Source: Escherichia phage LHE83
Reading direction: 5' to 3' (one strand)
Sequence record: OQ561750
DNA: 64,000 bases
Part shown: positions 1 to 38,247 of the stretch, one piece after another
Numbering within the stretch: position 1 is the stretch's first letter
How the letters are laid out: every line of letters begins with the position of its first letter
The notes under the pieces: model-generated
The model's database searches: none
What the model was told of the DNA's origin: nothing
What the model saw: only the letters and a program-made list of their open reading frames with translations
Made by a program: the position numbers and the translations under genes

Positions 1-16
1 CCTTTAAGGAATCCGT

Positions 17-613
17 ATGAAAACGTATAAAGAATTTATCGCCGAAGCTTCTGTAGGAAAGGTCCAAGGCATTAATAAAGATGAGTGGACTTACAAAGGA
101 AACGGCGTTGACAACCCAGGAAACGGTTTTGACGCTAAAACAGCTCCTATTGAACGGTATTTAGCTACAAAGGCTTCTGATTTTAAAGCTTTCGCCTGGG
201 AAGGACTTCGCTGGCGTAACGACCTAAATATTGAAGCTGATGGACTTAAATTTGCCCATATCCAAGATGTTGTTGCTAGTAACTTGGACGCAGCTTTTGT
301 TAAAGCTGACGGTGACCTTCGTCGCTGGAATTTAAAACTGTTCTCTAAACAGAAAGGTCCTGTATTTGTACCTAAAGCAGGTAAATGGACTATTGATAAT
401 AAATTGGCTAAGGCGGTCAACTTCGCCGGTCTTGAATTTGCCAAGCACAAATCAGCATGGAAAGGTCTCGATGCAATGACTTTCCGTAAAGAATTTGCCG
501 ATGTTATGGCTAAAGGCGGCTTTAAGGCAGAAATAGATACCTCTAAAGGTACGTTTAAAGACGCTAATATTCAGTACGCTTACGCCGTTGCTAATGCTGC
601 CCGTGGTAATTAA
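17..613 (+). CDS. ipIII: internal head protein IPIII-like
   Basis: ORF track; N-terminal MKTYKEFIAEA capsid-targeting motif shared by T4 internal proteins; length and sequence resemble T4 IPIII (memory). Confidence 0.8.
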   Translation: MKTYKEFIAEASVGKVQGINKDEWTYKGNGVDNPGNGFDAKTAPIERYLATKASDFKAFAWEGLRWRNDLNIEADGLKFAHIQDVVASNLDAAFVKADGDLRRWNLKLFSKQKGPVFVPKAGKWTIDNKLAKAVNFAGLEFAKHKSAWKGLDAMTFRKEFADVMAKGGFKAEIDTSKGTFKDANIQYAYAVANAARGN

Positions 614-654
614 TAAAGCGAATACTCGGACCTATTTACATTTAAAGGAAACAT

Positions 655-957
655 ATGAAAACCTATCAAGAATTTATCACCGAAGCGCGAGTAAGTGCGG
701 GTAAATTAGAAGCCGCCGTAAATAAAAAGGCCCATTCATTTCATGATTTGCCCGATAAAGACCGTAAGAAACTTGTAAGCCTTTATATTGACAAAGAGCG
801 TATTCTCGCTCTCCCAGGCGCTAATGAAGGTAAACAGGCCAAGCCTTTGAATTCTGTCGAAAAGAAAATTGATAACTTTGCTTCTAAGTTCGGTATGTCT
901 ATGGATGACCTTCAGCAAGCGGCTACCGAAGCAGCTAAAGCAATTAAAGGTAAATAA
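655..957 (+). CDS. ipII: internal head protein IPII-like
   Basis: ORF track; MKTYQEFITEA capsid-targeting N-terminus; about 100 aa. Confidence 0.75.
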   Translation: MKTYQEFITEARVSAGKLEAAVNKKAHSFHDLPDKDRKKLVSLYIDKERILALPGANEGKQAKPLNSVEKKIDNFASKFGMSMDDLQQAATEAAKAIKGK

Positions 958-959
958 CG

Positions 960-990
960 GTTTATTTTTACGATAGTTGTGATATAGTGT
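960..990 (+). promoter_or_regulatory. early-type promoter upstream of denV
   Basis: GTTTAT then about 17 nt then TATAGT; inverted repeat AGTGTTCTC/GAGAACACT places the Shine-Dalgarno in the 3' arm. Confidence 0.4.
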
Positions 991-1017
991 TCTCATACAA
1001 ACATGGAGAACACTAAA

Positions 1018-1425
1018 ATGACTCGTATCAACCTTACCTTAGTATCTGAATTGGCTGACCAACACTTAATGGCTGAATATCGTGAATTACCACGTGTTTT
1101 CGGTGCAGTTCGTGAACGTATTGCCAAAGGGCAAGGCTTCTCTGATATCCCTAAAGACTTCCGCCTTGGTTCAGGGCACGTCAAGTTCTTTTATGACAAA
1201 ATTGGTTTTTTGTTCTTGCGACAAAATGCAATAATTGAGGAACTTCTGAAGCGTGGTTACCAGATTCAAAATACCCATGTAGACGTAGCGGATATTCCAT
1301 TACGGCTTATGAACGATTTCACTCCAACCGAAGCTGATATAGCTTTAAGCCAAGCTCGTCTGGACGAAAAAATTGCACAGCGTCCTACCTGGTACAAACA
1401 TTATGGCAAGGCTATTTACGCTTAA
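1018..1425 (+). CDS. denV: endonuclease V (pyrimidine-dimer DNA glycosylase)
   Basis: Start moved to internal ATG ([29 protein letters not shown]); near-identical to T4 DenV N- and C-termini from memory; track start is an upstream in-frame ATG. Confidence 0.85.
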
Positions 1426-1468
1426 TTAAATCCGTGATAGAATACTTCTATCAACTTAAGGAATAACA

Positions 1469-1768
1469 ATGAAAACTTATCAAGAATTTATCACAGAAGC
1501 CAAAGCTCCTAAAGCATTTCAAATTGGAGTTCAAGGCAATTTAGACCAAGAATATGTTGATGCTATTGTAGCAAGCCTCGGTAAACAGGGCGTACAAGTC
1601 GATTTTGTTGATTTTACCAAAGGTAATACTTTTAATATTGTTACATCTAAAGGTTCTTTAGCTAAAGTTAAAAAGGCCTTTGGCGTAGCACAAGCATATG
1701 AAATCGACCACTCCGAATTAGAAAATAAAGGTCGCCAGAACACAATTAGAGGTTCTGGTTCTTTCTAA
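1469..1768 (+). CDS. ipI: internal protein IPI-like (T4 IPI inhibits GmrSD-type restriction)
   Basis: MKTYQEFITEA capsid-targeting motif; 99 aa; CTATCAAC/AAGGA cassette upstream. Confidence 0.7.
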   Translation: MKTYQEFITEAKAPKAFQIGVQGNLDQEYVDAIVASLGKQGVQVDFVDFTKGNTFNIVTSKGSLAKVKKAFGVAQAYEIDHSELENKGRQNTIRGSGSF

Positions 1769-1929
1769 TAAAGGCAAGCCGGCCCTCTCCTCATGAACGT
1801 CGCGTCCTCTGAGTGATGGACCTTTCCCTACCTGTAATAAGGTCGAGCCCAAGTGCGGTAAAGGGTTTACATACGGATACATGGATGAATTATGTGCCAA
1901 GGAACGGCCCCACCAACTAAGAGACAATT

Positions 1930-2457
1930 ATGAAATTTTTAACTCCCATTTATCTAACCTTAATGCACGCCTTCGCTGAACGCGCCATTGAACGTTTAGA
2001 CTCAGACCAATACACCTGGTATGAACCCGCTTCAAGAATGCAAGAGTTTGGTACTCTGAGACTTGACGGTGGGCGACAAACAGGTAAAACAAGTGCCATT
2101 GCGCAGTTTGCTGCGGATTGGGTTTCCAAGGGTAATGATGTGATTGTTATGTCGAGTTCTTCGCATCGCTCGCGAGAAATTTGTAATGTAATAAAACAGG
2201 TTTCTAAGGCACACCCACATCTCCAAGTCGAAGGTCCTGGTTTTGTTGTCTATGATACTGTGCGCAGTTTCCTTGATGAAGACAATTTCCATAAGTATCG
2301 TGGACTATCTGTTACTCGATTATTGATTATTATCGAAGAGCCAATGCGCCTTCCAGCGATGGATAAGTTCTATGAAGCTTACCAGGTAATGATTAATAAA
2401 TTTATGTGCCAAGGCGACAAGCCTTTGCCTCTGTTCTTTGTGATAGGAATGCAATGA
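1930..2457 (+). CDS. hypothetical protein with P-loop-like motif (GGRQTGKTS)
   Basis: ORF track; Walker-A-like motif; follows a GC-rich noncoding island. Confidence 0.55.
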   Translation: MKFLTPIYLTLMHAFAERAIERLDSDQYTWYEPASRMQEFGTLRLDGGRQTGKTSAIAQFAADWVSKGNDVIVMSSSSHRSREICNVIKQVSKAHPHLQVEGPGFVVYDTVRSFLDEDNFHKYRGLSVTRLLIIIEEPMRLPAMDKFYEAYQVMINKFMCQGDKPLPLFFVIGMQ

Positions 2458-20178: not shown

Positions 20179-20874
20179 ATGCACTATTGTTATATGACCA
20201 CTATAAAATCCGAAAATGATACTTATTACTATTTCGGTAAACACACCGGATTTATAGATGACGGGTATGTCGGTAGTGGCAAATTCGTAGAAGATGCTAA
20301 GGCCTCAGGGAAATGCTCTTTTAATATAGAGGCCTTATGTTATTTTGAGACAAGTGAGCTTGCTTTTGAATTTGAAGAGCTTTTGGTAGAAAATGCCATG
20401 TCCGAAATAACTAACTGCGTCAATATGAAACCTGGTGGTATAGGTGGTTATGCTCCTCCGACACCGGAAAGACTTGAAGAACAGTCTAAAGAAGTTACCG
20501 AACGCTGGCAGGACCCTGAATATAAAGAGCGGGTTTCCAACTCTATTAAAAAGTCTTGGGAAAATGAAGAGCATCGAGAAATGATGCGTCGAATCCATAA
20601 AGAGTATAATGCTAATCCTGAAGTTAGAGAGGCCAAAAGTAAAAAGAACAAAGAATATTACTCTATAGAGAATTATTCCAAGTTTGCTAAAAATCCAACA
20701 TATGTATTATATGATGAGTTCCATGAACTTTGGATTAAGGAAGGACGCCCTAGTTATTCTAAATTCTGGCGCAAATGCTGTGAACTATGTTATCCATATA
20801 CGATAAATAATTTTAGACCACTAGTTGATAGGTTTAAGAGGGCTTATGAATCAGGTGAAGTTAACAAAAAATAA
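20179..20874 (+). CDS. GIY-YIG homing-endonuclease-like protein (Seg/Mob-like)
   Basis: YYYFGKHTG...YVGSGK GIY-(10 to 11 aa)-YIG spacing; basic C-terminal half; 3' end overlaps the gene 55 start. Confidence 0.55.
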
Positions 20875-21403
20875 TTATGTAAATAACAAGGAGCTTCTTA
20901 AAGCTATTACAAGTTGGAAGCAGGAATTATATGCTAACACCGACCCTAATAAAATCATTAGACAAAATGATACTATAGGATTGGCTATTATGCTTATAGC
21001 AGAAGGCCTCAGCAAGCGTTTCAACTTCTCAGGATATACCCAATCTTGGCGGCAGGAAATGATAGCTGATGGAATCGAAGCTTCGATTAAAGGTCTTCAC
21101 AATTTCGACGAAACAAAATACGACAACCCACATGCATATATCACTATGGCTTGTTTTAATGCCTTCGTTCAGCGTATCAAAAAAGAACGTAAAGAAATGG
21201 CAAAGAAATATAGCTACTTCGTCCATAATGTCTATGACAGTAATGATGACGACATGGTAGGTATTGCAGATGAAACCTTTATCCAAGATATCTACGACAA
21301 AATGACTCAGTATGAAACCTCTTTAACTAAAGCACCAGGGTCTGATAAGAGTGCCGAACCTAAAGTTGGTGAACTGGATTTTTTATATGGAACATCAGAT
21401 TAA
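20846..21403 (+). CDS. 55: late-transcription sigma factor gp55
   Basis: Internal ATG gives 185 aa; NYVNNKELL...[28 protein letters not shown] near-identical to T4 gp55 from memory. Confidence 0.9.
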
Positions 21404-21617
21404 TATCACTCCACTTTTAGATGGAATGGAAGACTTCGAAGCACTCCCTTATTTTATTAAATTGATATTACGGGATGTTAAAGGTCTTCCTATTGATATT
21501 GACCCACTTAACGTCAGGAATATTGAATTCACTTCTCCTGACAATAACGTAGATTATCGTTATCATGTTGAGAACGCTAATTTCTACTTCACTATTGAAT
21601 TGACTCCAAAGGATTAA
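21387..21617 (+). CDS. hypothetical protein
   Basis: Internal ATG of track ORF 21351; overlaps the gp55 3' end. Confidence 0.4.
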
Positions 21618-21618
21618 T

Positions 21619-21930
21619 ATGCAAAGCCATGACATTTCTCAATTGACTGATGAGCAAATTGAAGAAGCCCAGCAACGTTTAGAAGAGCACAATATTAAAG
21701 AAGCTAATTCTCAAGCGGCTAAGATTCTTAAGAAAAATGCTCGTGAAATCCGTCGTTTAAATCTCCATGCCCAAGGCGCTGTACTTGAAAACAACTTTGA
21801 AGCATATAAGTACGCTTTAATTAAATTACGTGGTATTTACCGTCAACCTGTTACTGATGAACTTGTTCAATTGATGTGGAAATCTACCCGCAAACAAATT
21901 TGGGAAATCGTCAATGGCCCTAGTAAATAA
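21619..21930 (+). CDS. hypothetical protein
   Basis: ORF track. Confidence 0.5.
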   Translation: MQSHDISQLTDEQIEEAQQRLEEHNIKEANSQAAKILKKNAREIRRLNLHAQGAVLENNFEAYKYALIKLRGIYRQPVTDELVQLMWKSTRKQIWEIVNGPSK

Positions 21931-22114
21931 ACCCTTTAAACGGCTTCTTATTGGAGCCGCCTTTAGACTTCGCTCATACGGTAATATCTGTATTAAGCAG
22001 TCCGAAACCGAATATAAAATGGTCGGCCAGTATTCCGATGGAATTTTTCGGATTGAGCCCGTAGCCAAGGTTTGGGTAGATTCTCATCAACTTAAGAAAT
22101 GGTGGCAACGATGA
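21914..22114 (+). CDS. hypothetical protein
   Basis: ORF track; weak RBS. Confidence 0.35.
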   Translation: MALVNKPFKRLLIGAAFRLRSYGNICIKQSETEYKMVGQYSDGIFRIEPVAKVWVDSHQLKKWWQR

Positions 22115-22172
22115 TAACGTGGACAGGCGGCTAATGAAAGACGAATACGAAAAAGTTTAAGAGGTTGTATGA

Positions 22173-22346
22173 ATGACGAATTCGATGGATTTTGATAAGA
22201 TTAAATCTGACAAAAATGAGATGATACTTCAATTTGAAGCCGCTCGTATTAAAGCAGAAAATGAAGGTACTATTACCTATAAGCCTATCAAGTTCAGGTC
22301 TTCTCACGAACCTCTGTACGGTGTATTGGTTGGTAAAGGAGCTTAG
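22173..22346 (+). CDS. hypothetical small protein (57 aa)
   Basis: Read by eye; AGAGG Shine-Dalgarno; stop codon sits in the terminator hairpin loop. Confidence 0.3.
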   Translation: MTNSMDFDKIKSDKNEMILQFEAARIKAENEGTITYKPIKFRSSHEPLYGVLVGKGA

Positions 22347-22358
22347 GCTCCTTTTTTG
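22336..22358 (+). terminator. rho-independent terminator
   Basis: AGGAGC-TTAG-GCTCCT followed by TTTTTT. Confidence 0.6.
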
Positions 22359-22400
22359 CTTTATATTTGGATGATAAAATGAACCAACTGAGGAGAACAT

Positions 22401-22544
22401 ATGGAACTACTTTTAGGATATGTCGTGTTATTCATGGCATTCTACACATTCACACGAGCTTGTTGGATAGGATTCTTTTCCACTCCTGACGGGTTCATTT
22501 CAATAATTTTATTTTGCATTGCAATAACGGCGCTTGGCTTATGA
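22401..22544 (+). CDS. hypothetical small membrane protein (47 aa)
   Basis: Read by eye; CTGAGGAGAACATATG Shine-Dalgarno; hydrophobic; ATGA overlap with the gene 47 start. Confidence 0.4.
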   Translation: MELLLGYVVLFMAFYTFTRACWIGFFSTPDGFISIILFCIAITALGL

Positions 22545-23563
22545 AAATATTAAACACAGGTGACTGGCACCTTGGAGTGAAGGCCGATGATGTGTGGGTA
22601 CAAAATATCCAACGTCAAGGTATCCAAGACGCTATTAATTATTCTAAAGCAAATGGCATTACTGTATGGATTCAATACGGTGATATCTTTGACGTTCGTA
22701 AAGCAATTACCCATAAGTGTATGGAATTCGCTCGCGAAATCTCCGATTTGCTTAAAGCCAACGGCATTACCATGTATACGGTCGTTGGTAACCATGATAT
22801 GCACTACAAAAACACATTGACTCCGAACGCTGCTTCTGAAGTTCTGGGTAAATACGACCATATCAAGGTTATTGAGAAACCTACTACGGTTAATTTTGAT
22901 GGTACAGAAATTGATTTGATTCCATGGATGTGTGAAGAAAACACGACCGATATCATGGACCATATCAAAAATACTACTGCCGATTTCTGTATTGGCCACT
23001 GGGAATTAAATGGTTTCTATTTCTATAAAGGAATGAAATCACATGGTTTAGAACCTGATTTCCTTAAGAAGTATAAGCAAGTATGGTCTGGTCACTTCCA
23101 CACCATTTCTGATGCAGCAAACGTCAAGTATATTGGTACGCCATGGACCCTGACTGCAGGTGATGAGAACGACCCTCGCGGCTTCTGGATTTTCGATACA
23201 GAAACCCATAAGATGGATTTCATCATCAATGAAACCTGTTGGCACCGTAAGATTCATTATCCAAATGCGACTATCGATTACAAAGATTTTACAAATATCG
23301 CAGTTCGTGTTATAGTCGATAAAATTGATGACGGCCTTACTAAGTTTGAATCAGAGCTTGAAAAGGTCGTCCATTCTTTACGTATTGTGTCTAAGGTAGA
23401 TAACAGTGTTGATATCGATGATTCTGAAGAGGAAGATGAAGTCAAGTCCCTCTTGGATATGATGTATGATTATATCGATGCTCTTCCTGATGGCCACACT
23501 GAAGACGATGTTAAAGCCCTTAAGACTATGGCTGCACAACTTTATAATGAGGTTACACGATGA
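22541..23563 (+). CDS. 47: recombination endonuclease subunit gp47 (Mre11-like)
   Basis: MKILNTGDWHLG phosphoesterase motif; internal ATG chosen; track start 22514 is TTG. Confidence 0.9.
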   Translation: MKILNTGDWHLGVKADDVWVQNIQRQGIQDAINYSKANGITVWIQYGDIFDVRKAITHKCMEFAREISDLLKANGITMYTVVGNHDMHYKNTLTPNAASEVLGKYDHIKVIEKPTTVNFDGTEIDLIPWMCEENTTDIMDHIKNTTADFCIGHWELNGFYFYKGMKSHGLEPDFLKKYKQVWSGHFHTISDAANVKYIGTPWTLTAGDENDPRGFWIFDTETHKMDFIINETCWHRKIHYPNATIDYKDFTNIAVRVIVDKIDDGLTKFESELEKVVHSLRIVSKVDNSVDIDDSEEEDEVKSLLDMMYDYIDALPDGHTEDDVKALKTMAAQLYNEVTR

Positions 23564-32786: not shown

Positions 32787-32846
32787 GCAATACCAATTTA
32801 TTAAAAATAGTGTATAATGTACCTACATTCACTTGAGGAACAGATA

Positions 32847-34520
32847 ATGAAAAAGGTTGTTATTTTAGGCGCGGGTCTTGGCTCACGGTTGTATCCAATT
32901 ACCAACGAAATCCCGAAGGTACTGGTTAACTACAAACAACATACTGTATTAAAACATTTGTATGATTTGTATAGTAATCAATCAGATGAAATTATTCTGG
33001 TTATTCACAGCAAATTTAACGACCTCGTTAAAGGCTATATTAAATCCATTAACATGATTAATAGTGATAAGCCTAAATTCACTATTCGTAACGTTGATGT
33101 TGCCAATGGTTCGGCTCATGCTATCGATTGCATTGCCGAAGATATCATTGGGCACAATGTCTTGTTTAACTGGTGTGATATTATTCCTGAAGGTCATAAA
33201 GTTGAGTGGGATAACGACTACTGTTATACCTATGGGACCGACTGTCGTTTTACATTTGAAGAACCGTACTTGCGTGAAATTGGTACCGGTGGTGGCGTAG
33301 TTGGCTTGTATCAGGTGGCTAATTGGACAGGTTTCGACCGTTCTAATTATGGTGAAGACCTTGCTGACAACCTGGATTCAATGGTCCATTTGACTGAACG
33401 TAAGTTAGACTTTGTAGTTGATGTTGGTGACAAACTGAAACTGGCTAAGGCCCATGAAGATTCTGAAATTAACCGTGAATTTAATAAATTAGAGTTCACT
33501 GAGAATCTAGCTATTAAAGTACCTACAAACGAATTAGGTAAAGAAATCCAATCTAAAGAAATCAATTGGTACAATTCTATTGATTCTGAATTCGTTCCTA
33601 GCATTGTAGACTTTGCTCCAGGTGAATTCATTAAAATGGAACGTATCTTTGGTCGAACCATGGCAGATGCCTACCGGTTTATGTCTAAAGAAACTAAAGT
33701 CCTAATGGTTTATAAGGTTATTAGTGCATTACGTTCGTTCGGTGGAACTATCGATAATCCGTCCGATGAGCAATGGTATTCTGATGTTAAGAAAGAAGTA
33801 TTGGACAAGGTCCTTATTCGTAATGCTTCTATTGCCGGATTGATTGAAGGCTTTGCTCCACAGGGTATTACCCATGTTAACGACTTCAAGGTAGGCGACC
33901 CAGAAAAACTTCTTCGTCACGCCTTAGAAATTCTGTCTGAACATAAAGAACCGTACCAACTTATTCATGGCGACCCGCACTACAGTAATATTATGTTGTC
34001 GGACGAAGGTAATATTAAAATCATCGACCCACGTGGTTATTTTGGTAATAGTTCTAAAGGCCCTGCGATTTATGATGAAGCTAAGGTGCTTTATTCTATC
34101 GATGGTTATGACAAATTTAACTCTGACCCTCTATGGGGTGGCTTAACTCGTAACGGAACTCGTGTATTCGTTGATATTGAAAAGGTTATGCCTTTAGATG
34201 ATATTCCGATGTGTACATTTAAGCACAAGCTCTGGATTGCCGTTATTTGGATGGCATTGGCAGGTTACTTTAAAAATAACCCTCTGAAAGCTCTGGGCGC
34301 TTATTACAATGGGCTATATCAACTGAGTGTGCTGCTGAAGCGGCATCCTCGTAAGCGTAAGCTTATCACAGGTGAATTCGTTGATGAAGTTCGCGACCCT
34401 ATCACGGCTCAAATTATCACTCGTTGTCCTGATAAGTGGGTTTTGCTTGACCAGGAAACTGGTGTAAAATATAAACCTACAGGTTCTACCGAACTCCACA
34501 AACAATGGAAGAAAATTTAA
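32847..34520 (+). CDS. bifunctional nucleotidyltransferase / kinase (LicC- or MurU-like N-terminus, APH/choline-kinase-like C-terminus)
   Basis: ATG after GAGGA Shine-Dalgarno; N-terminal KVVILGAGLGSRLYPIT sugar-phosphate nucleotidyltransferase motif; C-terminal IHGDPHYSNIML...IIDPRGY kinase catalytic-loop pattern. Confidence 0.7.
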   Translation: MKKVVILGAGLGSRLYPITNEIPKVLVNYKQHTVLKHLYDLYSNQSDEIILVIHSKFNDLVKGYIKSINMINSDKPKFTIRNVDVANGSAHAIDCIAEDIIGHNVLFNWCDIIPEGHKVEWDNDYCYTYGTDCRFTFEEPYLREIGTGGGVVGLYQVANWTGFDRSNYGEDLADNLDSMVHLTERKLDFVVDVGDKLKLAKAHEDSEINREFNKLEFTENLAIKVPTNELGKEIQSKEINWYNSIDSEFVPSIVDFAPGEFIKMERIFGRTMADAYRFMSKETKVLMVYKVISALRSFGGTIDNPSDEQWYSDVKKEVLDKVLIRNASIAGLIEGFAPQGITHVNDFKVGDPEKLLRHALEILSEHKEPYQLIHGDPHYSNIMLSDEGNIKIIDPRGYFGNSSKGPAIYDEAKVLYSIDGYDKFNSDPLWGGLTRNGTRVFVDIEKVMPLDDIPMCTFKHKLWIAVIWMALAGYFKNNPLKALGAYYNGLYQLSVLLKRHPRKRKLITGEFVDEVRDPITAQIITRCPDKWVLLDQETGVKYKPTGSTELHKQWKKI

Positions 34521-34879
34521 TGCATCTGTGTTTTGATATCGATAATACCATTACTCACTGGCAAGATGACCGTGATTACGAAAACTTTAAACCGGACACC
34601 GAAATGGTGTCCATGATTAATAAGCTTTATGATGAAGGGTACGAGATTACCTTGTTCACTGCCCGTGGTATGACTTCATGCGGCCCGGGTCGAATCTTGG
34701 TTGAAGTAGTTCCTGCATTAGTTAAGAACCTTGAAAAGATTGGATTGAAATATCACAATCTGCTTACACATAAGCCGAGTTATACTTTTATCATCGATGA
34801 CCGAGCAATCCGTCCTGACCACTTTAAAGAAATGGTTCGTGAAGGAACTCTTGAAACCTATAAGGCATATCATCCGTGA
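34520..34879 (+). CDS. HAD-superfamily phosphatase
   Basis: TAATG coupling to the upstream gene; motif I FDIDNTIT (DxDxT) near the N-terminus; LFTARG motif II-like. Confidence 0.6.
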   Translation: MHLCFDIDNTITHWQDDRDYENFKPDTEMVSMINKLYDEGYEITLFTARGMTSCGPGRILVEVVPALVKNLEKIGLKYHNLLTHKPSYTFIIDDRAIRPDHFKEMVREGTLETYKAYHP

Positions 34880-35412
34880 AACCAAAAATCATTGTTATCG
34901 ACGGCCCGGATAATTCCGGGAAGTCTACTTTAATTGAATCACTTTTATCTGATAAGAAATATCGTCTTATTGATTTCCCTAAAAAGATTAATGGCAAATG
35001 CATTTCATTAGGGACCGATAATGACAAGGCTTTAGTCGAGACGTTGTATAAGTTTTTAGACCCTAATTTCGTTTACATCCTTGACCGTGGTTATCCAAGT
35101 AATATTGTTTACTCGGGATTCCTTCGCGGTGAAATGGACCCTTATGTAGAACTGGAAGATTGGAAAAGGTTTAAATCTGAATTCAATATTATTGAGGTTA
35201 TTTTAACCCGTAATCCACTGGATAAAGACTTTGAAGATGACCTTATTAAATTAACCAAAGATGAGTTCAACCTAACTATCCGGCAATATGAAACATGTTT
35301 TGAAAACGTGTTTAAAATCTTAAATCACGACGGCCATAATAACTTGCTTAACGTCGATATGGTAGAATTAAAACGTCTGAATGAATATATTGAAAATAAG
35401 GTGAATAAATGA
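34876..35412 (+). CDS. P-loop kinase (nucleoside/nucleotide-kinase-like)
   Basis: GTG start overlapping the upstream stop; KIIVIDGPDNSGKSTL Walker A resembles dNMP or small-molecule P-loop kinases. Confidence 0.55.
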   Translation: MKPKIIVIDGPDNSGKSTLIESLLSDKKYRLIDFPKKINGKCISLGTDNDKALVETLYKFLDPNFVYILDRGYPSNIVYSGFLRGEMDPYVELEDWKRFKSEFNIIEVILTRNPLDKDFEDDLIKLTKDEFNLTIRQYETCFENVFKILNHDGHNNLLNVDMVELKRLNEYIENKVNK

Positions 35413-36107
35413 AACACATTACCGCTGTTAGTTTTGAAAACGCGTTTAAGCAAATGAACGAAGAAATCCTGGAAGCTCCACAGTTTGCAGTTGATTCTCG
35501 TATCGGCCGTTGTTATGAAATTGGTTCTGCTTCGGTAGAAGTACTGGATGCAAGCACCTATAAATTCACCGACCCTCGTATTAATCGTATCAACTATGAT
35601 TATGCCGAATCTTTCTGGAAGTTTATGATTTCTGGTGGTACTGACGCCGCCGAAGCATTTAAGGAATACCCTAATGTTGCTAAGTTCATTGATAAGCCGA
35701 AAAGTGACGTATTGCCTGCAAACTTCAACACTTTCTATGGACCTAGAATTGTGGCCCAACTCCCAGCCTTACTTAAAGAGCTTAAAGAGAAGCCTAACTC
35801 AAGACGAGTTGTGTTCCAAATTCTCCAAGAACAAGACCAAGCCCTCCTTGATTCTGACGAATCCTTAGAATATCCATGTACTGATTCAGTGACATATTAT
35901 ATTCGTGATGGACGTCTTTATGCACATACCCATATGCGTTCACAGAACTGTGCTATTGTTATGCAGCTGGATTTCTATCTGCAGGGTAAACTGATGGCCT
36001 TTATTGCTGAACAGTGTGGTGTTGGTCTGGGTACGTATTCCCATACTATGGTTAGTGCACACGTATTTGAACGTGATTTTGACTACGTTCGAGGATTCCT
36101 GAAATGA
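35409..36107 (+). CDS. 42: dCMP hydroxymethylase (thymidylate-synthase fold)
   Basis: KPNSRRVVF, YPCTDSVTYYIRDG...HMRSQN and VSAHVFER align with T4 gp42 active-site segments from memory; syntenic position. Confidence 0.75.
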   Translation: MKHITAVSFENAFKQMNEEILEAPQFAVDSRIGRCYEIGSASVEVLDASTYKFTDPRINRINYDYAESFWKFMISGGTDAAEAFKEYPNVAKFIDKPKSDVLPANFNTFYGPRIVAQLPALLKELKEKPNSRRVVFQILQEQDQALLDSDESLEYPCTDSVTYYIRDGRLYAHTHMRSQNCAIVMQLDFYLQGKLMAFIAEQCGVGLGTYSHTMVSAHVFERDFDYVRGFLK

Positions 36108-36997
36108 GTTTGTTTATCGTTCCTATTTTCAGTATGCGTAGTTACGAAACAGGTGAATATGCCGTCCTTAAGGACGGTAATTTTCAACTCCATTTAAACC
36201 GTGCTTGCCCAGGTGATTATCTGGCTTATCCTAGAAATTCGAGCGATATCAAAGAATGCATTGAATTATTTCCTGAACTGAATTTTGTACCTCTTTGGTA
36301 TAAAGAAAATGCTTATGAAACTCGTAAACATTTTTGGTCTGAAAATGAGTTCGTTGTTGATTCGTTAATCGAATACTATGACTGCTCAGGATTGGTAACC
36401 GATATCACAGGTTATGATGGTGCTCATACCGTACAATTCAACTTTAACATTACAATGGACCCTGAAGTTCCTCGTTATTACATCGATGAGTTTATTGATA
36501 CCGACGTGGGTTCAGTTGAACGTTCGATTTATACCACAGTCCTGAATCAATGCCAGAAAGACGTCCTGGTGTCACGAGGTGCGTCCTCTGATAAGATTTT
36601 TGTAGACCAAAAGGTAATTAATCCGGCAGTAATTGAGCGTTACTCTGAAGGCCTAGCGCCTATTAAAATTGATGGTATTTTCCATCCATTCCGTATCTCT
36701 GATAAATGTTATCAATTCGAAAGAGTTGTAGACCAAGCTGCGGCTGAAGGTTCTCGCCTTTATATCACCGATCCGAATGATTCATTTAAGCGTGAAGACT
36801 ATCGTCCTGATGTAGAGATTATTAAATTCAAACCGAGTAAGGTTGAATATTATCAGATTCTGAAATCAAGACCTCATATCATTTATCATGAGAATCCCAG
36901 TTTAGTATTTCATCCTGGTCTAGCTGAATTCATTTATTTCGGTGCCCATATCCATTCTGAGCACGAAATGCCAAGTTATGAGGACGTGGTCCTTTAA
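36104..36997 (+). CDS. hypothetical protein in the beta-glucosyltransferase slot (putative DNA glycosyltransferase)
   Basis: ATGA-coupled to gene 42 and directly upstream of uvsX, where T4 carries beta-gt; no recognisable similarity to T4 beta-gt. Confidence 0.45.
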   Translation: MSLFIVPIFSMRSYETGEYAVLKDGNFQLHLNRACPGDYLAYPRNSSDIKECIELFPELNFVPLWYKENAYETRKHFWSENEFVVDSLIEYYDCSGLVTDITGYDGAHTVQFNFNITMDPEVPRYYIDEFIDTDVGSVERSIYTTVLNQCQKDVLVSRGASSDKIFVDQKVINPAVIERYSEGLAPIKIDGIFHPFRISDKCYQFERVVDQAAAEGSRLYITDPNDSFKREDYRPDVEIIKFKPSKVEYYQILKSRPHIIYHENPSLVFHPGLAEFIYFGAHIHSEHEMPSYEDVVL

Positions 36998-37074: not shown

Positions 37075-38247
37075 ATGTCTGATTTAAAATCCCGTTTGAT
37101 TAAAGCTTCTACTTCTAAAATGACTGCCGACCTGACCAAATCTAAATTGTTTAATGGTCGTGACGAAGTTCCTACTCGTATCCCTATGCTGAATATTGCA
37201 TTAGGCGGTGCGTTGAATGCAGGCTTACAATCAGGTTTGACAATCTTTGCTGCTCCATCTAAACACTTTAAAACGTTGTTTGGACTTACCATGGTTGCGG
37301 CATATATGAAGAAATATCCAGACGCAATTTGTTTGTTCTACGACTCTGAGTTTGGTGCTTCAGAATCTTATTTCCGTTCGATGGGTGTTGATTTAGAACG
37401 TGTGGTTCATACACCAATCCAGTCAGTCGAACAGCTTAAAGTTGATATGACCAACCAATTAGAAGAAATTACTCGTGGCGAAAAGGTTATTATCTTTATC
37501 GACTCCATCGGTAACACTGCTTCTAAGAAAGAAACCGAAGATGCTTTGAACGAGAAAGTTGTAGGTGATATGACTCGTGCTAAATCACTGAAATCTCTGT
37601 TCCGTATCGTAACACCTTATCTGACCATCAAGGATATCCCTTGTGTAGCAATTAACCACACGGCTATGGAAATTGGTGGAATGTACCCTAAAGAGATTAT
37701 GGGTGGTGGTACTGGTATTCTGTACTCTGCTTCTACCGTGTTCTTTATCTCTAAACGTCAGGTTAAAGATGGTACTGAGCTCACTGGTTATGACTTCACA
37801 CTGAAGGCCGAGAAATCTCGTACGGTTAAAGAGAAATCAACGTTCCCGATTACAGTGAACTTCGAAGGTGGTATCGACCCATTCAGTGGATTGCTTGAAA
37901 TGGCTACTGATATTGGCTTTGTCGTGAAACCTAAAGCTGGCTGGTATAATCGTGCATTCCTTGACGAAACCACAGGCGAAATGGTTCAAGAAGAAAAAGC
38001 ATGGCGTGCTAAAGCTACTGATTGTGTTGAGTTCTGGGGACCACTGTTTAAACATGCTCCGTTCCGTGAAGCAATCGAGAATAAGTATAAGCTTGGTGCA
38101 ATTAATTCTATTAAAGAAGTTGACGATGCGGTTAATGACCTTATTAACTCTCGTGTCTCTAAGAACGTTGCTGTTAAATTAGGTGGTAATGCCCAAAGCG
38201 CCGCTGATATCGAAAACGATTTGGAAGAGATGGATTTAGATGACTGA
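37075..38247 (+). CDS. uvsX: RecA-like recombinase UvsX
   Basis: 390 aa; MSDLKSRLIKASTS...; Walker A APSKHFKT region; near-identical to T4 UvsX from memory. Confidence 0.9.
   Translation: MSDLKSRLIKASTSKMTADLTKSKLFNGRDEVPTRIPMLNIALGGALNAGLQSGLTIFAAPSKHFKTLFGLTMVAAYMKKYPDAICLFYDSEFGASESYFRSMGVDLERVVHTPIQSVEQLKVDMTNQLEEITRGEKVIIFIDSIGNTASKKETEDALNEKVVGDMTRAKSLKSLFRIVTPYLTIKDIPCVAINHTAMEIGGMYPKEIMGGGTGILYSASTVFFISKRQVKDGTELTGYDFTLKAEKSRTVKEKSTFPITVNFEGGIDPFSGLLEMATDIGFVVKPKAGWYNRAFLDETTGEMVQEEKAWRAKATDCVEFWGPLFKHAPFREAIENKYKLGAINSIKEVDDAVNDLINSRVSKNVAVKLGGNAQSAADIENDLEEMDLDD

Follow-up and report, generated by a model that had tools for sequence, protein, structure and literature searches.

The internal head proteins that T-even phages carry differ widely in sequence, and the capsid-targeting sequence is the sole part conserved among them (PMC3012670). 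In phage T4, Ip1 blocks the GmrSD restriction enzyme of strain CT596, Ip2 blocks the BrxU-type GmrSD of ECOR21 and Ip3 blocks the two-gene GmrS1/GmrSD2 of ECOR17, the three showing no cross-protection; it has been proposed that all proteins of both Ip loci each inhibit a distinct GmrSD variant (PMC12373910). The present analysis concerns an internal-protein (ip) locus at positions 17 to 1768 of a 64,000-nucleotide stretch of DNA from Escherichia phage LHE83 (sequence record OQ561750; the whole stretch is referred to here as the window), together with a GC-rich element just downstream. Relative to the T4 map, the plus strand of the window is equivalent to the minus strand. The locus encodes IPIII, IPII and, in a slot between denV and vs.8, a protein of the Ip7 family. 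The best explanation of the whole, to which we assign a probability of about 80%, is that this is the usual internal-protein locus of a Dhakavirus, with an extra Ip7-type gene that belongs to the cassette system of T-even internal proteins and most likely encodes an injected inhibitor.

Three plus-strand open reading frames (ORFs) carry the leader: 17-613 (198 amino acids, beginning MKTYKEFIAEA), 655-957 (100 amino acids, MKTYQEFITEA) and 1469-1768 (99 amino acids, MKTYQEFITEA). An earlier note, made from the letters of the DNA, had pointed to these three N-termini, and the observation is borne out: the capsid-targeting sequence MKTYxEFIxE is found in all three, and a degenerate DNA pattern for the leader, with up to three mismatches allowed, has exactly three sites in the 64 kb and no match in 100 shuffles. 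In each product there is a single (L/I)xE motif, with residue 10 as its last, and (L/I)xE is the kind of site that is cut by the T4 prohead protease. The same note took the entire interval as an internal-protein cluster. This is correct for the three leader-bearing ORFs, and the interval also holds denV, which does not encode an internal protein and, as in T4, interrupts the run of ip genes.

The first two ORFs are readily assigned. The product of 17-613 (leader 17-46; predicted mature protein of 188 amino acids, isoelectric point [pI] 9.5) is an IPIII orthologue with 87% identity to T4 IPIII over its full length (BLASTP, E=7e-128); it matches the 'internal virion protein' profile phrog_5341 end to end (E=4e-115), and its single IxE motif lies at residue 10. 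The product of 655-957 (leader 655-684; predicted mature protein of 90 amino acids, pI 9.7) is an IPII orthologue, with 95% identity to T4 IPII in BLASTP, 94% over 100 amino acids in tblastn, and an end-to-end match to phrog_7857 (E=2e-54). By extension from T4, the 94-95% orthology suggests that IPII of the window would block a BrxU-type GmrSD nuclease, and the 87% orthology that IPIII would block a two-gene GmrS/GmrSD nuclease.

The third ORF, 1469-1768 (leader 1469-1498; predicted mature protein of 89 amino acids, pI 9.0), belongs to the Ip7 family of internal head proteins. Residues 1-99 align with positions 1-101 of the 'internal head protein' profile phrog_2667 (E=7e-43), and the protein is 47-53% identical to T2 ip7 (50%), RB69 ORF156c (47.5%) and MX01 gp140, annotated 'Ip7' (50%). 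Ip7 of MX01 was also the only significant match of its structural model in a viral structure library (Foldseek, E=2.5e-10). By tblastn, homologues occur in 283 phage records: approximately 67 at 90% identity or more, mostly Dhakavirus and including identical proteins in two phages (IME540 and vB_EcoM_FB), approximately 57 at 60-80% identity, from Klebsiella T4-like phages, and 155 below 60%, T2 and RB69 among them. The T2 homologue is annotated ip7 within the gene order 57B-ip5-ip7-trna.4, the RB69 homologue adjoins a genuine ipI, and the 57B locus of MX01, the nearest of the relatives examined, has no ipI and carries Ip9 and Ip7 besides the copy next to denV. By homology, the third gene is a second copy, diverged to ~50% identity, of the Ip7 gene; close relatives have the latter near 57B as well, at a locus that lies outside the window.

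The earlier note had called this third protein IPI-like and supposed that it may target a different modification-dependent nuclease. On this reading, the protein would be a relative of the T4 inhibitor of GmrSD(CT596), retargeted to a nuclease recognizing the non-glucose modification of this phage. A leader of the same kind, a similar size and a place in the ip locus speak for such a reading, and T2 Ip7 occupies the locus that holds ipI in T4, so that in some phages Ip7 stands in for IPI by position. As a claim of homology it is refuted by alignment, profile, predicted fold and locus, and we consider it very improbable. When the ORFs were aligned with IPI, IPII and IPIII, the first proved to be IPIII and the second IPII, and the third aligned with none of them. 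BLASTP of T4 IPI against the 99-residue protein returned only residues 1-7 (MKTxxEF, E=0.035), the multiple alignment was likewise negative, and tblastn with T4 IPI and RB69 IPI found no match in the window. T4 IPI retrieves its own nuclear magnetic resonance structure, 2JUB, at 1e-44, and this structure was not found at E<=10 in searches of the PDB with the 99-residue protein or with a 16-sequence family profile. IPI* is described as having an N- and a C-terminal helix on either side of two beta sheets (PMC3012670). The AlphaFold2 model of the 99-residue protein, made from the 16-sequence family alignment (mean pLDDT [predicted local distance difference test] 75, 80-90 in the core), is predicted to differ, having a beta-alpha-beta-beta-alpha-beta order with a C-terminal helix. 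Nor is the gene in the ipI position, which in T4 runs from 57B to trna.4; it sits between denV and vs.8. The leader is thus all that the protein has in common with T4 IPI. A Pfam scan of the 99-residue protein returned no family, and a weak PDB match to a flagellin-hook repeat protein was dismissed as spurious.

Comparison with near relatives shows that both gaps around denV are occupied by exchangeable genes. The gap between ipIII and denV contains the IPII gene in the window and in MX01, a gene for a 132-residue leader-bearing protein in JS98 and JS10, and nothing in WG01. The gap between denV and vs.8 contains the Ip7-like gene in the window, MX01, JS10 and JS98, two other leader-bearing genes (119 and 85 amino acids) in WG01, and nothing in T4. 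RB69 has yet other leader-bearing genes, ORF125c and ORF127c, on the two sides of denV. All of the alternative slot proteins start with MKTY(N/Q)(E/Q)FI(A/T)E. The WG01 proteins (gp114 and gp115; excerpt 1653-2278) and the 132-residue protein of JS98 (gp114; excerpt 1152-1550) are annotated as hypothetical, and the 119-, 85- and 132-residue proteins are unrelated to Ip7, IPI, IPII and IPIII.

At the DNA level, similarity between the window and WG01 extends across the denV-ip intergenic DNA and the leader, is completely lost beyond the leader, and returns in the GC-rich element downstream. It is a long-standing idea that the conserved leader is a recombination anchor for the swapping of ip genes. 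The alignment of the window with WG01 fits a process in which recombination anchors for ip gene swaps would be provided by the leader and, in this case, by the conserved downstream element as well. A promoter-like site lies over the end of denV at 1415-1443 on the plus strand (TTTACG, a 17-nucleotide spacer and TAGAAT, with a TG); a CGCTTAA resembling the T4 MotA box is situated 12 nucleotides upstream of its -10 element. The segment 1415-1443 recurs unchanged in WG01, ahead of another ip gene, and may be a common promoter for whichever cassette fills the slot between denV and vs.8.

No homologue of T4 a-gt or b-gt was found in the window by tblastn, in which the T2-type beta-alpha-gt was not queried. 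The genes that flank a-gt in T4 are present (gp55 at 20867-21400 and gp47 at 22541-23560), as are those that flank b-gt (a gp42-like gene, and uvsX at 37075-38247). The interval from gp55 to gp47 (21400-22541) is approximately 1.1 kb without a glycosyltransferase, and its T4 counterpart is approximately 3 kb with a-gt, mobB and small genes. Positions 32817..36997 on the plus strand hold a probable cytosine-arabinosylation gene cluster, as identified by Pfam and PHROG scans and by tblastn with RB69 and T4 proteins. In order, it comprises a sugar nucleotidyltransferase and a kinase (32817-34520), an RB69 gp51-like gene (34505-34879), a nucleotide kinase (34876-35412), a thymidylate-synthase-fold enzyme homologous to RB69 gp48, the 5-hydroxy-dCMP (5-hydroxydeoxycytidine monophosphate) synthase (35409-36107), and a 297-residue arabinosyltransferase resembling RB69 gp46:47, which is arabinosyltransferase 1, at 64-70% identity (36104-36997); the functions follow PMC13326640.

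The product of 35409-36107 is 79% identical to RB69 gp48 vs 25% to T4 gp42, the dCMP hydroxymethylase, in a neighborhood where core genes are 66-87% identical to those of T4. Homologues of RB69 gp51 (62%), gp52:53 (41-44%) and gp45 adjoin the gp48-like and gp46:47-like genes. Homologues of RB69 gp55 (arabinose-5-P isomerase), gp50 and gp3 were not found in the window by tblastn; the phage may encode them outside the window or have no need of them. Of these RB69 genes, gp51, gp52:53 and gp55 serve the supply of UDP-arabinose. RB69 gp48 makes 5-hydroxy-dCMP, RB69 DNA contains arabinosylated 5-hydroxycytosine, and the same modification has been predicted from synteny for Dhakaviruses (Lee et al. 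2026, PMC13326640). It is very likely that the DNA of this phage is not glucosylated, as the earlier note supposed, given that a-gt and b-gt homologues are lacking in the window and RB69 arabinosylation genes have homologues there. The note had gone on to picture a differently decorated hydroxymethylcytosine; the gp48-like enzyme indicates that the modified base is probably arabinosylated 5-hydroxycytosine instead. The UTI89 GmrSD-type enzyme restricts RB69, whose DNA is arabinosylated (PMC6024577), and BrxU restricts phages with 5-ara-dC and cleaves Mosigvirus DNA that contains it (PMC13390438). GmrSD-type enzymes thus act on arabinosylated DNA, and a phage with such DNA therefore still needs inhibitors. 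It is also clear that IPI is not limited to glucosylating phages, since RB69, which arabinosylates, still has a true ipI.

Taken with the T4 precedents, these observations suggest how the proteins would work. By analogy with T4, the 10-residue capsid-targeting sequence would dock all three proteins in the prohead scaffold, and the gp21 protease would then remove the leader after Glu10. The basic mature proteins (188, 90 and 89 amino acids) would stay in the head and be ejected into the cell along with the DNA. There, the Ip7-type protein would act as a stoichiometric inhibitor of one early-acting host nuclease, other than the targets of IPII and IPIII and probably a type IV enzyme of the GmrSD family. 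Inhibition is its most likely role, as judged from its membership in the ip cassette system and from that only, and some modification-dependent nuclease is a plausible target. Several points weigh against this proposal. The presence of the three proteins in the virion is, for this phage, a prediction from sequence alone. A screen of ip4-10, ip7 included, against a panel of GmrSD enzymes gave an apparent ip7/CLS_011 interaction that was irreproducible (PMC12373910 supplement); the test phages were glucosylated T2, T4 and T6 (PMC12373910). The predicted fold of the 99-residue protein is a generic ferredoxin/ACT/RRM-like one that is uninformative with regard to a target. The Ip7 family is also tiny and has no characterized member: when its profile was searched against 1.84 billion cluster representatives, two strong clusters were returned. 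The remaining weak matches in that search were HEAT or RTX repeat proteins, judged spurious, and a literature search on Ip7 function returned only inositol-phosphate papers.

The failure of that screen to give a reproducible Ip7 target is compatible with a mainly structural role, in which the Ip7-type protein would be a charge-neutralizing head component that aids DNA packaging or ejection without a specific host target. The mature forms of all three window proteins are basic (pI 9.0-9.7), and lysines of internal proteins touch DNA phosphates in T4 heads (PMC3012670). The mature Ip7-like protein, however, has a net charge of only about +2, compared with +6 for IPII and +8 for IPIII, and this weakly basic character argues mildly against a pure DNA-counterion role. 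Furthermore, the gene is swapped between near-identical phages, which suits the cargo of an arms race better than a structural need, and all three internal proteins characterized to date are specific inhibitors. A mainly structural function is accordingly regarded as quite unlikely. The negative result for ip7 on the GmrSD panel could alternatively mean that the protein is an injected effector against a target outside the GmrSD family, such as another early-acting defense or a host process. Many ligand- and RNA-binding modules use the ferredoxin/ACT/RRM-like fold, and the neighbor vs.8 triggers Avs2 when co-expressed, so the neighborhood is not purely one of type IV restriction. There is, however, no positive evidence for any alternative target, and the three precedents of the cassette system all hit GmrSD enzymes; such an effector seems unlikely to us.

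The phage itself and the surrounding genes are familiar ones. Megablast of window positions 1-2400 gave matches in 774 phage records, the closest being the Dhakavirus genomes C6, MX01, UGJNEcP3/4, AnYang, JS10, JS98, QL01 and WG01 at 94-98% identity; going by these relationships, the source phage is a Dhakavirus, a JS98/MX01-like T-even phage. The region is the usual e-proximal internal-protein locus of Dhakavirus, consisting of ipIII, ipII, denV and then the extra Ip7-family gene; gene e lies outside the window and is found upstream in relatives. The denV gene, for endonuclease V (a pyrimidine-dimer glycosylase), occupies 1018..1425 on the plus strand, as supported by Pfam Pyr_excise (E=1e-14), phrog_1183 (E=2e-52) and synteny with the annotation of T4, MX01 and JS10. 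Its mechanical ORF extends from 1003 (1003-1425), and the start homologous to that of T4 (MTRINL), at 1018, is the probable one.

The downstream limit of the variable ip slot is vs.8 (1930..2457, plus strand, 175 amino acids), a terminase-ATPase-like P-loop protein that matches phrog_1488 (E=2e-69) and, weakly, phrog_2, the terminase large subunit (5e-4); the annotation of relatives agrees. Toxicity of T4 vs.8 upon co-expression with the immune sensor EcAvs2 is reported in a 2026 preprint (bioRxiv 10.64898/2026.04.30.721860), and the ip cassette and the RNA-like element described below thus adjoin a possible immune trigger or decoy.

Between the Ip7-type gene and vs.8 is a 161-nucleotide spacer, 1769-1929. 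The earlier note had singled it out as a GC-rich island, and it is indeed real, with a GC fraction of 0.45-0.49; for the ip7-like gene and the intergenic DNA on its flanks, the fraction is approximately 0.32-0.43. It contains a conserved candidate for a structured RNA, outside the ip genes, at approximately 1766..1908 on the plus strand. By blastn, the element is present in 985 phage records, T4 included, and is almost always unannotated; it occurs in Tequatrovirus, Mosigvirus, Dhakavirus, Karamvirus, Moonvirus, Tegunavirus, Kanagawavirus and Winklervirus and also in Klebsiella phages. It stays within the interval from denV/ip to vs.8 whatever gene precedes it, whether this is ip7-like (the window), denV (T4, PG7 and PEi26) or ipIII (Moon and TG1). 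It is usually directly upstream of vs.8, with an ip7-like gene intervening in the Klebsiella phages. With a covariance model, the window gave one match only, at 1766-1870 (E=6e-27). No Rfam 15 family matched the element, even at E<=10 on 221 nucleotides, and the core was absent from the 185,579 bacterial and archaeal genomes searched.

The possibility that the element is vs.8 coding sequence was rejected: in the window, a TAA in frame at 1918-1920 comes just before the vs.8 ATG at 1930, the length differences among variants are not multiples of three, and most genomes annotate nothing there. The T4 copy of the element falls within the 5' end of vs.8 as annotated (219 amino acids), at approximately 64,780-64,940 on the minus strand (NC_000866 excerpt 2780-2945); the window has an in-frame stop where the T4 annotation runs through the element. 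The vs.8 start used in other Tequatroviruses is the ATGAGAACA further downstream, so that the T4 model is probably about 44 codons too long.

The proposed structure of the element, on the plus strand, begins with a five-pair helix P1 (1770-1774 with 1821-1825) that encloses a variable hairpin, P2 (1784-1818). Helix P3 (1826-1829 with 1862-1865) follows and encloses the invariant 32-nucleotide core ACCUGUAAUAAGGUCGAGCCCAAGUGCGGUAA (1830-1861), which is predicted to form two small hairpins. A possible pseudoknot pairs the loop inside P1 (1779-1781) with a segment 3' of P3 (1874-1876), and a 3' hairpin pairs 1895-1897 with 1906-1908. In alignments of 24-28 distinct copies, all five pairs of P1 show compensatory changes (AAAGG/CCUUU, GGGAA/UUCCC, AAAGC/GCUU and AAAGA/UCUUU). 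One pair of P3 is seen as UA, AU, UG and CG, and one pair of the pseudoknot helix as CG, UA, AU and GC, neither with a mismatch. For one base pair of P2, both partners are lost in three sequences. Overall, 88.8% of the alignment cells are paired, and the covariation score is 0.304 vs 0.110 +/- 0.011 in shuffles (0/500 as high), with slid partners giving at most 0.09. Because the aligned copies are phylogenetically clustered, the independent changes are few. An alignment-free test of the pseudoknot helix, comparing the longest complementary run with shuffles, was not significant per sequence; this helix has 3 base pairs in the window and is weak in T4-type copies, and its support is positional covariation only. 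Invariant G-U pairs favor the plus strand, which is the mRNA strand, as the one that would be structured as RNA. As a strong single-sequence fold the element is unremarkable (minimum free energy z-score -0.36), and no intrinsic terminator was found in it.

Further copies show some variety in arrangement. In Kanagawavirus and PEi26-type phages, there are two tandem copies (397-501 and 532-612 in one excerpt), the second with the variant core GGCCAGUCCGCGACGGUAA and a covariance-model E of approximately 1e-9. Distant core copies occur outside the T-even phages, at 1889-1962 (minus strand), 1917-1993 (plus strand) and approximately 1225-1345 (plus strand) of the respective excerpts. Two of them, one after a GH24 lysozyme/holin cassette and one ahead of an HNH endonuclease gene, were found by the covariance model in non-T4 contigs; another belongs to a phage contig of 138 kb. 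The metagenome copies from a 138-kb phage have the same helix arrangement with different sequences, as read by eye (P1 GGGG/CCCC; long-range helix GCCAGC/GCUGGU). Blastn also gave 39-nucleotide matches in coliphages of 136-139 kb (naswa and EPFV3).

The chances seem to us evenly balanced that this element is an undescribed class of structured RNA (subscription literature aside), pseudoknotted, approximately 110-145 nucleotides in length, and present in approximately 1,000 T-even genomes, with distant copies in unrelated large phages. Functions as a regulatory leader, as a stable small RNA or as a catalytic RNA are all conceivable, and the swappable internal-protein cassette may have its 3' boundary at the element. 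The element is more unusual than the ip genes. Its confirmation would add a new conserved structured RNA to the phage family that has been studied best, and would correct the gene model of T4 vs.8. The three ip genes, for their part, are known families in a known phage genus, with IPIII, IPII and Ip7-type proteins annotated in JS98, JS10, MX01 and many deposited genomes. The presence of IPII, IPIII and an Ip7-type protein in a phage whose DNA is probably arabinosylated is nonetheless a useful pointer, since the published Ip7 screen used glucosylated phages.

Set against the described systems, the order ipIII-ipII-denV in the window is that of T4, with the same neighbors. The orthologues of T4 IPII and IPIII, however, reside here in a phage whose cytosines are probably arabinosylated and not glucosylated, and of the nucleases cognate to these two proteins, only BrxU is known to attack arabinosylated DNA. 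T4 IPI resembles the third protein in being small, in its MKT(Y/F)xEF N-terminus and in its place in a hypervariable ip locus, and is itself packaged, processed and injected. Its propeptide of 19 residues differs from the 10 of the third protein, the mature parts have no sequence similarity, and the locus is another one. RB69 ORF125c and ORF127c, JS98 gp114, and WG01 gp114 and gp115 have mature parts unrelated to the Ip7-like protein. The RB69, JS98 and WG01 genes nevertheless have the same leader and the same positions flanking denV, and therefore belong to the same cassette system.

The closest counterparts are the Ip7 proteins of T2, MX01 and RB69 (PHROG 2667), which share with the window protein the leader, a similar length (99-108 amino acids), identity over the whole protein, the same PHROG and a matching predicted structure. 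Those Ip7 genes occupy the classical ipI locus, from 57B to trna.4, whereas the window copy lies between denV and vs.8. The sub-group of the latter (at least 58% identity) comprises Dhakavirus and Klebsiella T4-like phages, and in the Klebsiella phages the Ip7-like gene can sit on the other side of the RNA-like element. The DNA of T2 is glucosylated. Because T2 glucosylates and RB69 arabinosylates, the Ip7 family does not follow the kind of modification that the DNA carries.

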